Made by a program: the position numbers and the translations under genes
Notes under the pieces: generated by a model
The model's database searches: none
The model's input: only the letters and a program-made list of their open reading frames with translations
What the model was told of the DNA's origin: nothing
Source: Eledone cirrhosa
Lineage: Eukaryota
Reading direction: 5' to 3'
Assembly (NCBI GenBank): GCA_964016885.1
Contig: OZ024747.1
Location: forward strand, 80,476,001-80,540,000
DNA: 64,000 nucleotides
Shown: positions 3,659 to 62,762 of the stretch, one piece after another
How positions within the stretch are numbered: the first letter of the stretch is position 1
How the letters are laid out: each line of letters opens with the position of its first letter

Positions 3659-3720
3659 GGGAAAAGAGTCAGGACCCCGACAGCTGAGCTCCAGCCGTTT
3701 CGACGGCTAGACCCGAACTA
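3659..3720 (-). mobile_element. Fragment of hammerhead-associated family B between (TA)n tracts
   Basis: Matches GACCCCGACRGCTGAGCTC...GCCGTTTCGACGGCTA of copies at 5667, 57736 and 62582. Confidence 0.75.
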
Positions 3721-3744
3721 TATATATATATATATATATATATA

Positions 3745-3870
3745 CAGAGAGAGAAATAACAACACAATCGGTACAGTATATGGAAGGGATCTATTAGGTT
3801 AACGCTTGATATAGCAAGAAGAGGGTATTAACGTTTCGGACGCTAGTCCTTCATAAGAAAAAAAAAATGA
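3745..3870 (-). mobile_element. Penelope-like terminal (pLTR) fragment with degenerate minimal hammerhead
   Basis: Minus strand reads CTTATGA-a-GGAC tagc GTCC-GAAA-cg-TT, the same scaffold as the hammerhead at 12389-12424; adjacent to (TA)n. Confidence 0.5.
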
Positions 3871-4096
3871 GTAATAAGAACGATTGAGGGGACGGGCGAG
3901 ATGGAATTGGAAAAAAATGTCTTTAGATAAAAATAACAGGTCCATTCATGTTGACATCTCTTGTAAAACTGTTGGTGCTGGCGTTTTGTGTATGATTTAT
4001 TTTTGAGAAAAGTGGATGATACATATTTATTTATTTATATATATATATTATGTATATATGTTTATATGTTTAATGTTTAAACATTTTCCTCTTCAG

Positions 4097-4234
4097 GTTT
4101 CGGAATTGAACGACTTGCGTTGTTAAAGATCAAGCTTTATGGAACCGAGGGAATATATTCAGCGTCCGTTATCAACCCTCCACCCAAGCTCTTTTCCGCC
4201 GGATCAAGGGATCTGCTTGTTCTAGCGTCACAAG
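4097..4234 (+). CDS. Probable internal exon (phase 1-1, 138 bp) encoding part of a PLAT/LH2 domain, polycystin-1-like or related gene
   Basis: Acceptor ttttcctcttcag|, donor CAAG|gtaata; translates (G)FGIERLALLKIKLYGTEGIYSASVINPPPKLFSAGSRDLLVLASQ, fitting the PLAT pattern TG...I.LYG..G...F..GS.D...L; neighbouring exons not identified. Confidence 0.6.
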
Positions 4235-4387
4235 GTAATATCGCCAAATACTATTCGAATCAATAAAACAGTGTTTCATTTCTTTAGAACTAACAAACGC
4301 TGCTGCAATTTGAATATTTTCCAATGTATTTATGTATTTGCTTGTTCTTTCGCTGAACCTACTACCTCATCATCATCATTATTTAAA

Positions 4388-4456
4388 GCCGAAATAGCTG
4401 TTGGTATAGCCTTAGACTGAAGATCTAAAGGTCCCCTTTTCAATCTCTGGTTTCGA
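4388..4456 (+). pseudogene. tRNA-Phe(GAA) pseudogene
   Basis: GCCGAAATAGCT...TTAGACTGAAGATCTAAAGGTCCC matches eukaryotic tRNA-Phe; D-loop deletion and degraded T-arm/acceptor. Confidence 0.8.
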
Positions 4457-4637
4457 GGGCGGTGTATTTGGCAGTATCTGTAGAAGGTCTGACGCCATGC
4501 TTTCCAGCATAGTTACGTCCCTTCATGGTCTGAGTTCAATTCCCGCCGAGGTTAACGTTGCCGTTCATCGTTACGGGGTCGATAAAATAAAGCACTAGGA
4601 TAATTGCTGGCCTTGTGCCAAAAGTAGAACAATTATA
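4457..4637 (+). mobile_element. tRNA-derived SINE
   Basis: GGCGGTG..TGGCAG head, B box, CGGGGTCGATAAAATAAAGCAC core, GGCCTTGTGCCAAAAGTAGAA tail. Confidence 0.88.
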
Positions 4638-5214
4638 TTTCTAACATATATTCCTGTATAACTAATTAGATACGGGGCAGAAACAAACACCTGCATATAT
4701 GAATTCATAAATATGAAGGTATTTATTGCTGTGTTCGAGTGAGTGTGAATACAAATAATCTGAAGTACACAGACACAGTCGTCCAGTATCTCTCTTTCTG
4801 TGGGTCTGATTAAATTGGTTTACAAAGCCAGTGGAAGAGAAACCGTACAGTTACTGTTGTCACACACCCAATGATGTTAAAATATTTAGACGTTACACAG
4901 CCTACCCACATTTCGCTATTAGTATATATATATATATATATATATATATATATAAACAAACGTGGTGCGTGGTTGCAAATGGGTTACATATGAATAAAGT
5001 TAGTCCTTCATCAGTGATCTTCCAACCTTCATTGGTATTTCATCGCTTTAAAGACCATATACCTCCGGTTGGTGCGAGCAACGGCTAAAGAAAGTCGTTG
5101 GGACACGTAAATAAGGGGAACGAGCGAGACTGTAAACAAACAAAGATGGTAATGCAACGAAACGTGAGGAAGAAAGAGTCAAGTACCATATATATATATA
5201 TATATATATATATA

Positions 5215-59040: not shown

Positions 59041-59859
59041 ATATATATATATATATATATATGCATGCATTTGTATATGAATAAATATACGCAATTCATT
59101 ATCTGTATGTATACTTGTATATATTTAATGTATATTATATATATATACATACATGTATATATATATATATATATATATATATATATATATATATATATAT
59201 ATATATATATATATATAATGTGTGTGTGTGTGTTTGTATACATGTATATATGTAATGTATATATATATATATATATATATATATATATATATATATATAT
59301 ATATGGATAAATATATACATATATATAGATAAATATATACATATATATATATATATATATATATATATATATATATATATATATATATATAAATATATAT
59401 ATAATATACTAATAAACATTAAATATATACAAGTATACTTACATACAGATAATGAAATAGGTATATTTATTCTTATACAAATGGATGCATGGAGAAATAT
59501 ATACATATACATATATAAAATAAAACCAATTTCCTACATAAATGTGTATATATGCATACATTTATATTCGCACACATCATATATATTGTATTCTACATAT
59601 ATGGAAATATAAAGATTGAAGACCATTATGGCGGGCGTCATTTCCTCAACAGCAACTCATATTTTCAGAAATGATGGCCGTGCAAGGAGTAGAAATCGAT
59701 ATTCGAAACATATTACAGATGAGAATCATATATAACAAAATATACTTTTAGTTGTCTGTCATGTTTGGTCTACCTTTTTGTCCACTTGTATCCATATACA
59801 CATAGAAAGATCTCCTTGCCTCTATACATACATATATGCACGCTTACACTAACACTCAC

Positions 59860-61140
59860 CCACAAATACATAAACCCATATATATATATATATATATATA
59901 TATATATATATATATATATATATATATATATATATATATATATATATATATATATATATATTTATATATATATGTGTAAATAGATATACATATATGTAAA
60001 TATATATATATAAATATATACATATCTATATATATATATATATGTATATATACATATATATATGTGTGTAAATATATATATATGTAATGTAAATATATAT
60101 ATATATACATATGTATATATATATATATATGTATATATATATATACGTATATATGAATATATATATATATATATATATATATATTAATATATACGTATAT
60201 ATATATATATATTCATATATACGTATATATATACATATATATATATATATATATTCATATTTACGTATATATATACATATATATATATATTAATATATAT
60301 ATTTATATATATATATATATATATATATATATATATATATATATATATATATATATATATATATATATAGAATCAGACGTGCATAGTAATACAAATACAT
60401 ATACACGCATTCACCCATGTATATGCTTGAGACAGCATGTGTACATACACATTTAGTCTCTGTGCTGCTTATATATATATATATATATATATATATATAT
60501 ATATATATATATATATATATATATATATAAGCAGCGCAGAGACTAAATGTGTATGTACACATGCTGTCTCAAGCATATACATGGGTGAATGCGTGTATAT
60601 GTATTTGTATTACTATGCACGTCTGATTCTTTTTGTTATGGTTGGACAAAGAAACTTTCCTGTGGTTAATATGAAAATCTTGTATCAAACTTCAAAGATG
60701 GTATATAAACATATATACATACACACACACACACACACACACACACACACACACACACACATATATATATATATATATATATATATATGTAAATATATAT
60801 ATATATATATGTAAATATATATATATATATATATATATATATATATATATATATATATATATATATATATATATATATATATATAAATATATATATATAT
60901 ATATATATATATATATGTAAATATATATATATATATATATATATATGTAAATATATATATATATATATATATATATATAAATATATATATATATATATAT
61001 ATAAATATATATATATATATATATATATATATATATATATATATATATATATATATATATATATATATATATATATATATATATATATATATATATATAT
61101 ATATATATATATATATGTAAATATATATATATATATATAT
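59860..61140. repeat. Extended (TA)n-dominated microsatellite zone
   Basis: Long TA runs with interruptions; contains the inverted duplication at 60369-60630. Confidence 0.95.
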
Positions 61141-62117
61141 CATAAGCGCAGGACAAACTAAAAATAACAGTGTCTTCAAAGTCTCTTTGAGCTTCTCTAT
61201 ACCCAACTTAATATTGTGCAACTAAAATAATTGAATAAATAAACAATCAAACAAATAAACAAACAAACAAACAAATAAATAAATAAATAAATAAATAAAT
61301 AAATAAATAAACATATACATAAATAAATAATAGTTAAATGAATGAAATAGAAATAGAATGAAAAAAGAAAAGCAAGATCGATATTGCATGCATATTTTCT
61401 ACTGTACTCCTCTACGCATTCAGATCGATACTGTATTGTCACAAAATGATTGAGTAGGTTATATAATAAGTAAATGAATAAATAAATGTATAGAAATAGG
61501 AATATTTGAAAATAATATATAATATAAAATTATAAATATAATACACCCGATTTTGTTTCACTTTCTTTCCAGTACACCAATTAAGATTGCTTGATTTTAT
61601 ATATATATATATATATATATATATATATATATATATATATATATATATATATACAATATGTTGAAAAGGTAACACACCAGAGAGAGATATACAGTGCGTT
61701 ATCAATAAATCAGGGAAAAAAACCACCAGTGTATGGAATCTATAACCTATGAAAGGCAGACTATAGACACGATAATTAAAAATATAAATTAAAACGTAAA
61801 TAAATACCTCTATAACTATATAACACACGTACAAATCCAAAGACACTCATCTAAAGATATGTTTCACCAATAATTTGTTGAAAGAAATGGGTTAGCCTCG
61901 GTTCATCAGCGTGTGTAAGGCTATACATTTCAGACAACACTAAGAGAATTTTAAAATTGACTGTCCACCTACACGTGGGAGAGAGGAGTCACAGCGTGTT
62001 TAAGGGCAGTGAACCAGTGGCCTCTGAGGGACGAACTGCTAGAAAGGGCAGTCCAAAGCCACTCAGAGAAGTGTGCTCAACCAAACAGAGTTAGGAAAGA
62101 CTGTTATTAGGAGCGAA

Positions 62118-62191
62118 ATATCACGATAAATTAACGGAGGCATAGGCCCTCGCTAGCGAGGGCCTATGCCTCCGTTAATTTATCGTGATAT
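62118..62191. repeat. Perfect 74-bp palindrome abutting (TA)n
   Basis: ATATCACGATAAATTAACGGAGGCATAGGCCCTCGCT|AGCGAGGGCCTATGCCTCCGTTAATTTATCGTGATAT. Confidence 0.92.
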
Positions 62192-62246
62192 ATATATATA
62201 TATATATATATATATATATATATATATATATATATATATATATATA

Positions 62247-62556
62247 TAGTATAAAAAAACAAAAAATCAGTGATACATCTGGACTCAACTTATTGCGTGT
62301 TACAATTGTTTCGCCGGCAGGTAGCTCGAGACACGAACTACCCGTGGTGTCTGAAGGACCTGCAGCCGTAGAATCAGCCAGATCCATACAGGGACCATGT
62401 CTCAAGCCTCCTGCTGGCGAAACAATTGTAAAACGCAATAAATTGAGGCCAGATGCATCACTGATTTTCGTTTTTTATACTATCCACACTCTACTCTGTT
62501 GAATATTGAGTGCTAATTTTGGTATACCGCCTATGGAAGCACCATAGCTACCATTA
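62247..62556 (+). mobile_element. Family G inverted-arm element with hammerhead 3' half and tail
   Basis: Arms about 62247-62333 / 62397-62482 containing GAAA-CAATTG-TA; tail with ACTC..GAGTGCT. Confidence 0.8.
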
Positions 62557-62581
62557 TACACAAGTATATATATATATATAT

Positions 62582-62762
62582 AACGAAGGAAATGTGGTAA
62601 GGAACCAGGTGGACCATAACGCACCAAAGTACTCAATACTTAGGGTAGTAGAGTGGGTAATAGGAACCAGTAAGACCCCGACGGCTGAGCTCAAGCCATT
62701 TCGACGGCTAATTAGCCGTCGAAACGGCTTGAGCTCAGCCGTCGGGGTCTTACTGGTTCCTA
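62582..62762. mobile_element. Family B inverted-arm element
   Basis: Near-perfect palindrome centred at GGCTAATTAGCC; tail to 62582; tatacacaagtata present on both sides. Confidence 0.85.

Follow-up and report, generated by a model that had tools for sequence, protein, structure and literature searches.

We examined a window of 64,000 nucleotides (nt) from the genome of Eledone cirrhosa (assembly GCA_964016885.1, contig OZ024747.1, positions 80,476,001 to 80,540,000 of the forward strand; coordinates below count from its first letter), in which an earlier note had listed 19 inverted-repeat insertions between (TA)n runs and had compared them with Penelope-like elements (PLEs). The window has a G+C content of 34% and contains dozens of (TA)n runs. 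Self-BLAST and a scan of segments running from TA to TA recovered a local head-to-head inverted repeat in (TA)n at all 19 sites; these palindromic insertions are real, dense and of the kind known from PLEs. Most tails carry a hairpin that occurs twice in the 5′ untranslated region (UTR) of complete Hydra-clade PLEs, whose copies mostly end shortly before one or the other hairpin, a signal that would explain the one-sided tail of PLE insertions.

In the TA-to-TA scan, 17 of the 19 sites scored at least 60. The 10137 and 43518 elements were split by inner TA runs and were both recovered by self-BLAST (10227–10302 against 12204–12279, 76/76 identical; 43576–43753 against 44008–44185, 178/178 identical). 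Leaving out the 10137 element, the other 18 scored 60–455, and the maximum among 360 dinucleotide shuffles was 32. A sliding scan of the whole window found strong local inverted repeats essentially confined to the TA-flanked elements, except for a tail-to-tail pair at 27881/28446. This pair comes from a separate small family (24367–24495, 27870–27989 and 28335–28451), in which two out of three copies end at (TA)n, two stand tail to tail, and the hammerhead-like letters are degenerate. Arms at the listed sites measure 30–230 nt. One arm directly adjoins TA and the opposite arm bears an extension of 41–137 nt in 18 of the 19 sites, as the earlier note had described, and 54437 is the exception without a tail. 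Several elements have near-perfect palindromic centres, with spacers of at most 7 nt in six. Every listed element lies between TA runs and, with (TA)n on both flanks, a target-site duplication is unreadable from the sequence. We also found three unlisted elements of the same form: 24601–26786 (tail of 162 nt), 61654–62187 and 60370–60760. The density is thus 19–22 insertions per 64 kb, or one per 2.9–3.4 kb, close to the earlier estimate, and the arms of the 22 palindromes make up about 5% of the window bases.

The listed sites sort into 11 sequence families (Table 1): families A to E, with 54437 counted in E, and six singletons. Within the window, comparison of copies showed fixed outer ends and variable junctions in families A, B, C and D, as had been claimed. 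The description of the families as unrelated did not hold, as most of them share an outward hammerhead ribozyme and a tail hairpin. Inverted repeats with TA flanks are also what miniature inverted-repeat transposable elements (MITEs) or fold-back DNA transposons inserting at TA would produce, and the 43518, 54127 and 57906 elements have no clear hammerhead or hairpin. Yet in 18 of the 19 elements only one side of the inverted repeat is terminal, most carry hammerheads and PLE hairpins, and a MITE-like element of the same window (836–1156), which lies outside (TA)n, shows a target duplication and terminal repeats that are short. A MITE origin fails for families A, B, C, D and E because of their variable arms, single arms, one-sided tails and hammerheads or hairpins, and we consider it very improbable for the elements in general. 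Terminal inverted repeats of fixed length at both ends, as in MITEs, were not found. Short terminal inverted repeats are also found in a second MITE-like element, at 33312–33651; the one at 836–1156 is putatively hAT-like by its motifs.

Table 1. Palindromic insertions and related elements in the window. Hairpin positions (e.g. +7) are given in nt into the tail.
Element	Position	Strand	Arms	Spacer	Tail	Hammerhead, hairpin and other features
Singleton palindrome	5217–5615		60 nt (60/60)	142 nt	right, 137 nt	hammerhead on − strand copy, first two core letters lost at junction; hairpin +7, long loop
Family A palindrome	5667–5877		45 nt (39/45)		left, 80 nt	outward hammerhead 3′ half; hairpin +8
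Family A palindrome	62583–62760		49 nt (48/49)	none	left, 80 nt	hairpin +8
Family A single arm with tail	57737–57895	+				
Family A single short-ended arm	3659–3718	−				
Family B palindrome	26807–26989		56 nt		left, 68 nt	hammerhead core on both arms; hairpin +12
Family B palindrome	38445–38616		38 nt		left, 69 nt	hairpin +11
Family B palindrome	53915–54101		54 nt (54/54)		right, 72 nt	hairpin +12 (best model match)
Family C variant palindrome	5931–6236		42 nt		left, 87 nt	full hammerhead 6136 (+); hairpin +5
Family C ends flanking 1.9-kb chimeric interior	10137–12279					inverted tail and arm 10137–10302; right end 12149–12279; hammerhead 12181 (+)
C-terminal GIY-YIG fragment, Hydra-clade PLE	10303–10527	+				begins at inversion junction of the 10137 element
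Family C palindrome	15072–15301		30 nt		right, 90 nt	hammerhead 15115 (+); hairpin +7
Family C palindrome	50028–50217		39 nt		right, 90 nt	hairpin +7
Family D palindrome	44201–44351		43 nt		65 nt	5′ half of hairpin motif only
Family D palindrome	58494–59037		138 nt (123/138)	201 nt	65 nt	decayed U3-A8-type hammerhead on both arms; read majority restores stem II (58952, 58955)
Family E palindrome	62249–62564		83 nt (74/83)		right, 84 nt	hammerhead 3′ half on both arms; hairpin +7
Family E-related palindrome	54437–54580			58 nt		two short ends; tail-like sequence within spacer
Singleton palindrome	6889–7298		143 nt (140/143)		left, 91 nt	full outward hammerhead on both arms, 7201 (+) and 7077 (−); hairpin +7
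Singleton palindrome	43518–44185		178 nt, identical	254 nt	left extension, 58 nt	
Singleton palindrome	50253–50437		34 nt		right, 66 nt	hammerhead 50319 (−); variant hairpin, passes loose pattern, fails strict rule
Singleton palindrome	54127–54399		115 nt, identical	2 nt	41 nt	
Singleton palindrome	57906–58466		230 nt, identical		43 nt	spacer with five telomere-type hexamers
Tandem repeat, non-coding, 591-nt unit ×3.4 (unlisted)	24601–26786	−	35 nt		162 nt	inverted 197-nt copy (arm and tail); U3-A8 hammerhead per unit
Unlisted element	61654–62187	−	33 nt			perfect palindrome 62122–62187; hammerhead-like core 61909; tail begins with Hydra-type G-C hairpin at +7
Coding PLE, 5′-truncated	12300–15057	−				reverse transcriptase C-terminus, CxxxxCxxC linker, GIY-YIG; minimal hammerhead 12418; TA on both sides; no inverted arm

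The presence of the palindromes in independent data was examined in two raw Illumina runs (X8 and X9) of the same species label from a separate study, at 85% likeness to the stretch 57640–59037. The mapped reads numbered 28,325 (of 12.47 million) in one run and 28,845 (of 12.79 million) in the other. Reads of family A pass into (TA)n at two constant positions: 3481 reads in X8 and 3054 in X9 do so at the short end, 2275 and 2203 at the tail end. Inverted joints between opposite strands occur at many variable positions in families A and D, with 0–3 shared letters or 1–40 extra letters. Family A is abundant: about 0.23% of reads fall on three families, mostly on A, in restriction-biased libraries that do not give a copy number. 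Contigs of a second organism also contain the families of 57640–59037 (662 mapped). Piles of read ends fall on AATT; we read them as library cut sites and rejected them as biology. Fold-back artefacts of sequencing or assembly, or host inverted duplications seeded by (TA)n cruciforms, would draw on the self-complementarity of (TA)n; the evidence is at the family level, as no read or contig spans the 57640–59037 locus, and the unlisted pair at 60370–60629 has a central TA run and no other copy in the window. Against such an origin, arms differ by substitutions (39/45, 74/83 and 123/138), ends recur across dispersed copies, and orientation follows the hammerhead. Since the reads of both runs show the opposite-strand joints and, for family A, both fixed ends, an artefact or cruciform origin is refuted at the family level for A and D, and we give it hardly any credence for the whole set. 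The 60370–60760 element has (TA)n at its centre between 100-nt arms that are 99% alike, carries a 131-nt extension and lacks the hairpin; instead of a PLE end, it may be a duplication seeded by a cruciform. Another inverted repeat with a TA-rich centre lies at 59063–59488 (77-nt arms, 87% alike).

We searched for hammerheads by a pattern of core letters and stems, and found an outward-reading hammerhead or its 3′ half in 8 out of 11 listed families. In particular, type I cores were present in families B and C and in the 6889 and 50253 elements, and a nearly whole core in 5217; family D carries a decayed U3-A8 variant, and families A and E carry 3′ halves. The pattern search found no hammerhead in 43518 and no clear one in 54127, and the motif of 57906 is hammerhead-like. 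A TA-flanked single element at 17413–17764 contains a type I hammerhead that is complete and has 75 nt inserted in stem II (Rfam 18 bits); this element has a short stem II motif in common with family A. TA-flanked single arms at 3745–4035 and 4955–5187 carry decayed minimal hammerheads like that of the coding PLE at 12300–15057.

Two PLE open reading frame (ORF) remnants in the window have database support. The 12300–15057 PLE, presumably Neptune-like from its motifs, has 455 relatives at E ≤0.001 and about 60% identity. The fragment at 10303–10527 matched a Hydra-type profile of 120 proteins with an E-value of 3e-16, over the C-terminal CxxC and CxH part only. Within this reference set the motifs RWK (89 of 120), DKT (119), the CxCx5C linker (83), CxxC (120) and CxH (119) were found, the last two lying around a conserved E and N. 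A full HMMER search with the 70-residue fragment retrieved 971 proteins, and a word-index search none. Pfam at an E-value of 0.05 assigned no family to the PLE fragments, and their relatives had only weak RVT_1 or GIY-YIG scores; Hydra relatives were absent from the viral contigs searched.

In the tails of 8 out of 13 tail-bearing families we found ACTC at +6 to +13 with a complementary GAG(T/C) downstream (random windows, 2.3%). We searched for its counterpart in 78 Hydra-type PLE loci from metagenomes (the best 80 of 437 matches were kept). A hairpin of the form GCTC(C/T)...(G/A)T(T/C/A)GAGCAC lies between hammerhead and ORF in 24 of 24 distinct Hydra regions, and 21 of these regions contain two such hairpins; random 170-nt windows contain one in 4.9% and two in 1.5% of cases. 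The distance from the hammerhead cut to hairpin 1 is 33–57 nt and that from hairpin to hairpin is 48–74 nt (n=23). The inner pair covaries (C-G 55, T-A 20 and G-C 1 out of 76), and the covariation test gave 255 of 255 cells paired with 0 of 500 shuffles as high, in sequences that are related to each other. The use of a 5′ UTR hairpin before each 3′ end as a criterion was derived in this analysis and is not a published one. We also considered ACTC as a relic of the first ORF codons and rejected this, as the Hydra hairpins lie 55–90 nt or more upstream of those codons. At four of the outside loci (L014:1264, L043:2400, L048:319 and L049:2567), other hammerhead elements lie in TA runs beside Hydra elements; TA runs are therefore repeatedly reused as targets, as in our window.

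Returning to the window, a strict hairpin rule matched 16 of 22 tail starts and 0.6% of random positions. A covariance model built from the Hydra loci only gave 18 matches, of which the top 13 comprised 10 starts of tails and, in the tandem unit, 3 sites of the second hairpin. By family, the strict rule matched 6 of the 11 listed families together with the 24601 and 61654 elements, while 50253 matched a loose pattern only; family D, 43518, 54127, 57906 and 60370 gave no strict match. The hairpin begins 5–12 nt into the tail and is mostly the ACTC/GAGT variant, so that the window families mostly have A-U at the outer pair, where the sampled Hydra loci use G-C. Finally, 15 of 21 tails begin with TA.

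The ends of the Hydra copies themselves fall at the same hairpins. Among 13 terminal copies, 11 end 2–12 nt before a hairpin, 5 at hairpin 1 and 6 at hairpin 2 (chance about 13% each). For this count we retained the best same-family match per terminal copy and distinct copies only, excluding cross-family partial matches, contig-end rows, two inverted-arm rows and the duplicate L027. The two hairpins together were found in none of 12 TA-ended copies, one of which is of a non-Hydra type. The short end thus lies before hairpin 1 and the tail end before hairpin 2, and the tail therefore equals one hairpin period. Our literature search found no description of the hairpin pair or of such a period; Repbase and Dfam lay outside that search, and a prior mention is possible. 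Among 16 palindromes of the hairpin families in the window, 15 combine a short and a tail end, one has two short ends and none has two tail ends (p about 3e-4 under free 50:50 choice). This strict asymmetry suggests that the two primings are coupled on one complex. A further observation concerns family D, in which both short arms share T and both tail arms C at the 59006 position, C being the letter of most reads; this would fit separate template copies for the short and the tail arms (n=2, one site).

The same asymmetry would arise automatically if one tail-end complementary DNA (cDNA) primed on itself and folded back into the second arm, with the endonuclease cutting a TA-like patch before hairpin 1 and the hairpin serving as a DNA recognition site. 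Palindromes at junctions were interpreted as self-priming by Arkhipova et al. 2013 (PMC3846280), and Craig et al. 2021 (PMC8557442) attribute the tail to resolution by the endonuclease; the arms within an insertion share subfamily variants, and the six short spacers fit as well. However, the short-ended copy reaches much further 5′ than the tail-ended one in at least five elements (5217, 5931, 10137, 24601 and 50253), by up to 3.4 tandem units, which the tail-ended cDNA could not have supplied. Moreover, some short-ended copies stand alone, with no inverted partner (3659, 8222), and both ends of the tail are start sites of the reverse transcriptase (RT) in vitro in the part of the anole PLE study that maps them (PMC11167929). 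We therefore regard fold-back as unlikely.

The 24601–26786 array extends the end pattern to a non-coding RNA. It holds four hammerhead copies at 591-nt spacing and its longest open frame has 86 codons. The 162-nt tail of its inverted copy simply continues the unit. Hairpin 1 is located 8 nt past the short end; a second hairpin was predicted to follow the long end of the tandem unit and was found at +11, 11 nt past the tail end. The proposed link to a tandem retrozyme is supported by this array, a retrozyme-like non-coding repeat in which each unit has a hammerhead and the ends are of PLE type. From its arrangement, the array was apparently inserted ready-made with a PLE-type inverted arm and tail, and the hairpin pair at its two ends is positional evidence for the mobilising enzyme. 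Such tandem repeats have been proposed to be PLE-dependent in parts of PMC7229834 and bioRxiv 10.64898/2026.07.22.740005. Like the non-LTR (long terminal repeat) retrozymes described there, the 24601 unit is non-coding, falls within their 51–972 nt range and has one type I hammerhead; it differs in keeping the Hydra hairpin pair at two ends with an inverted arm and tail.

Non-autonomy is shown for 24601 only. Many autonomous PLE families could have left the short families as stumps, because PLE tails are also non-coding 5′ UTR, and the 591-nt repeat would then be the only passenger, with the same chemistry as we propose below. In the autonomous Hydra loci the hammerhead lies 47–461 nt (median 131) past the ORF stop; since most copies in the window reach no more than about 100 nt from the hammerhead, they would not be expected to include an ORF. 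Passages of Cervera and de la Pena (PMC4209133) ascribe close opposite-strand hammerhead pairs to truncated PLEs. The full end pattern of the non-coding tandem unit argues the other way, as does the great abundance of family A in a window with only the two supported ORF remnants. To us, the stump explanation falls just short of an even prospect. The earlier idea of one machinery acting on many small RNAs is accordingly borne out by a single family.

Taken together, the palindromes are probably 5′-truncated insertions of PLEs and of non-coding passengers, made mostly by a Hydra-clade enzyme that is predicted to bind two tandem RNA hairpins and to begin cDNA synthesis shortly upstream of each. 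In the proposed route, the GIY-YIG domain would nick both strands of a (TA)n run, and the two 3′-OH ends would anneal to short patches rich in UA that lie 5′ of the respective hairpins. An RT-endonuclease dimer seated on both hairpins would then prime with one subunit at site 1 and with its partner at site 2. Synthesis of both cDNAs would end prematurely, in many cases within or close to the hammerhead, and microhomology or end joining would then link their 3′ ends head to head, leaving an inverted arm and an arm with a tail. The same route would mobilise any RNA that carries both hairpins, the 591-nt tandem unit among them. Outward hammerheads, the two PLE ORF fragments and the Hydra-clade hairpin in most tails agree with the GIY-YIG/RT origin that had been suggested; a fully shared machinery is not upheld for 43518, 54127, 57906 and family D, which lack the full hairpin and are likely products of other PLE clades by the same two-ended route. 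A more tentative version, which we would place somewhat on the doubtful side, is that a dimeric RT-endonuclease uses the tandem hairpins as a ruler, that each insertion becomes an asymmetric palindrome, that retrozymes are mobilised in this way, and that an inverted repeat results every ~3 kb.

Several points weigh against this reading. The ACTC/GAG motif was first seen by eye in the window, before the outside loci were tested, and only one pair covaries in the Hydra loci because the outer four pairs are invariant and are themselves part of the selection pattern. Two of the 13 copies misfit (L022 ends mid-tail and L026/L027 reach 6 nt into hairpin 2), and 54437, with two short ends, is the lone exception to the asymmetry. 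Where the arms overlap, copying both of them from a single RNA would require strand displacement, or else a second RNA must have served, and the near-perfect palindromic centres are also expected from fold-back. Three targeted Rfam scans gave one sub-threshold hammerhead (18 bits, E-value 0.12, in the unlisted element at 17506), with no match to family C, to the Neptune-like end or within the tandem unit, and folding z-scores of −1.9 to +0.1 are not unusual; because Rfam is weak and folding energies are ordinary, the hammerhead calls rest on core letters and stems. A whole-window Rfam search gave only microRNA-type noise on simple repeats among 150 of 241 matches listed. We recovered no autonomous Hydra element from this genome and no full Hydra ORF in the window, and nucleotide BLAST against the 78 Hydra loci found no similarity. 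The link between the 10303–10527 fragment and family C is uncertain because the fragment has its own hammerhead half at 10563, 36 nt after the stop, and is followed by unrelated DNA in a chimeric neighbourhood; judged from the sequence, it may be captured rather than the ORF of family C.

The rest of the 10137 interior (10530–12149) consists of the Hydra ORF end, a minus-strand open frame at 10700–10990, and simple repeats. The open frame may be PLE thumb-like. The interior may be DNA captured between two family C ends; in family C no homology was found upstream beyond about 100 nt of the hammerhead. Five CCCTAA hexamers lie at 58136–58168, within the spacer that separates the 230-nt arms of the 57906 element, a repeat passed over in the read mapping; they were possibly added to a free cDNA end before joining, or are part of the family RNA.

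Other features of the window are not palindromic insertions. A decayed long interspersed element (LINE) gave RVT_1 and zf-RVT matches at 47249–49094 on the minus strand, within 46778–57063, and a second copy of its 3′ end lies at 56679–57063. A family resembling short interspersed elements (SINEs), of about 190 nt and not TA-targeted, has at least 10 copies or fragments at 75–87% identity (3087–3280, 4455–4651, 21157–21348, 31254–31454, 40216–40353 and 63237–63673); no tRNA genes were called in the window, this family included. A lone candidate coding exon at 4097–4234 has good splice signals and a 45-codon open frame, and no database support was found for it. Minisatellites occur at 33800–34570 (unit of about 22 nt) and 52444–52693 (unit of about 29 nt).

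Much of the insertion form is already described for PLEs, namely truncated ends in inverted orientation, a tail on one side, hammerheads and insertion into (TA)n, and retrozymes have been proposed as passengers. An inverted 5′-truncated pseudo-long terminal repeat (pLTR) with an optional tail is described in parts of PMC3846280 and PMC8557442, and also of PMC4209133. Insertions of endonuclease-bearing (EN+) PLEs, as treated in sections of the first two papers, share with ours the head-to-head truncated copies, the tail at one end, junction palindromes or microhomology, capture of unrelated DNA between the ends, and microsatellite targets. Ours differ in being mostly reduced to the two ends (144–670 nt), in tails of 41–162 nt as against 30–40, and in ends that map to a repeated hairpin, which we did not find described in those sections. 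Hydra elements carry canonical type I hammerheads and insert in (TA)n according to a passage of PMC8557442. Our elements resemble Hydra-clade PLEs in both respects, in the ORF fragment's C-terminus and in the 5′ UTR hairpin of the tails, and differ from them in the outer pair (A-U against G-C) and in the lack of a full ORF in the window.

Among biochemical studies, the closest parallel is the purified PLE of the green anole, Poseidon (Frangieh et al. 2024), which, in the portion of PMC11167929 on its activity, cleaves and extends both strands and starts at two internal sites, one at each end of the tail; a dimeric form is predicted for it. The likeness would cover the two RT start sites, the cutting and extension of both strands, the predicted dimer, and the AT-rich target. 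The Poseidon sites differ in lying inside the ORF, at an AC-rich stem-loop, and in lacking homology with the target, whereas in the Hydra loci the predicted sites lie in the 5′ UTR, each before its own hairpin, at a TA-like patch. In Schistosoma, dual hammerheads about 100–700 bp apart on opposite strands were ascribed to truncated PLEs in passages of PMC4209133, which contain no end mapping and no tail or hairpin analysis. The U3-A8 core variant reported in them is also present here, in 24601 and family D. Our analysis adds a cis signal with covariation, from which both ends of an insertion can be predicted in Hydra-clade elements as well as in a tandem passenger.

How PLEs form inverted ends and a one-sided tail is stated as an open question in parts of PMC8557442 and PMC11167929. 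A covarying hairpin that predicts both 3′ ends to about 10 nt makes the tail question directly testable in vitro, and it offers a tag by which unclassified 'MITE-like' repeats and retrozymes could be assigned to the PLE clade that mobilises them. If the Hydra enzyme needs only the hairpin pair and a TA run, it would be a compact system for two-strand insertion. The density of the palindromes in the window makes them candidate substrates for double-stranded RNA (dsRNA) formation and editing and, if the tentative version holds, an inverted repeat every ~3 kb would be a large potential source of dsRNA.

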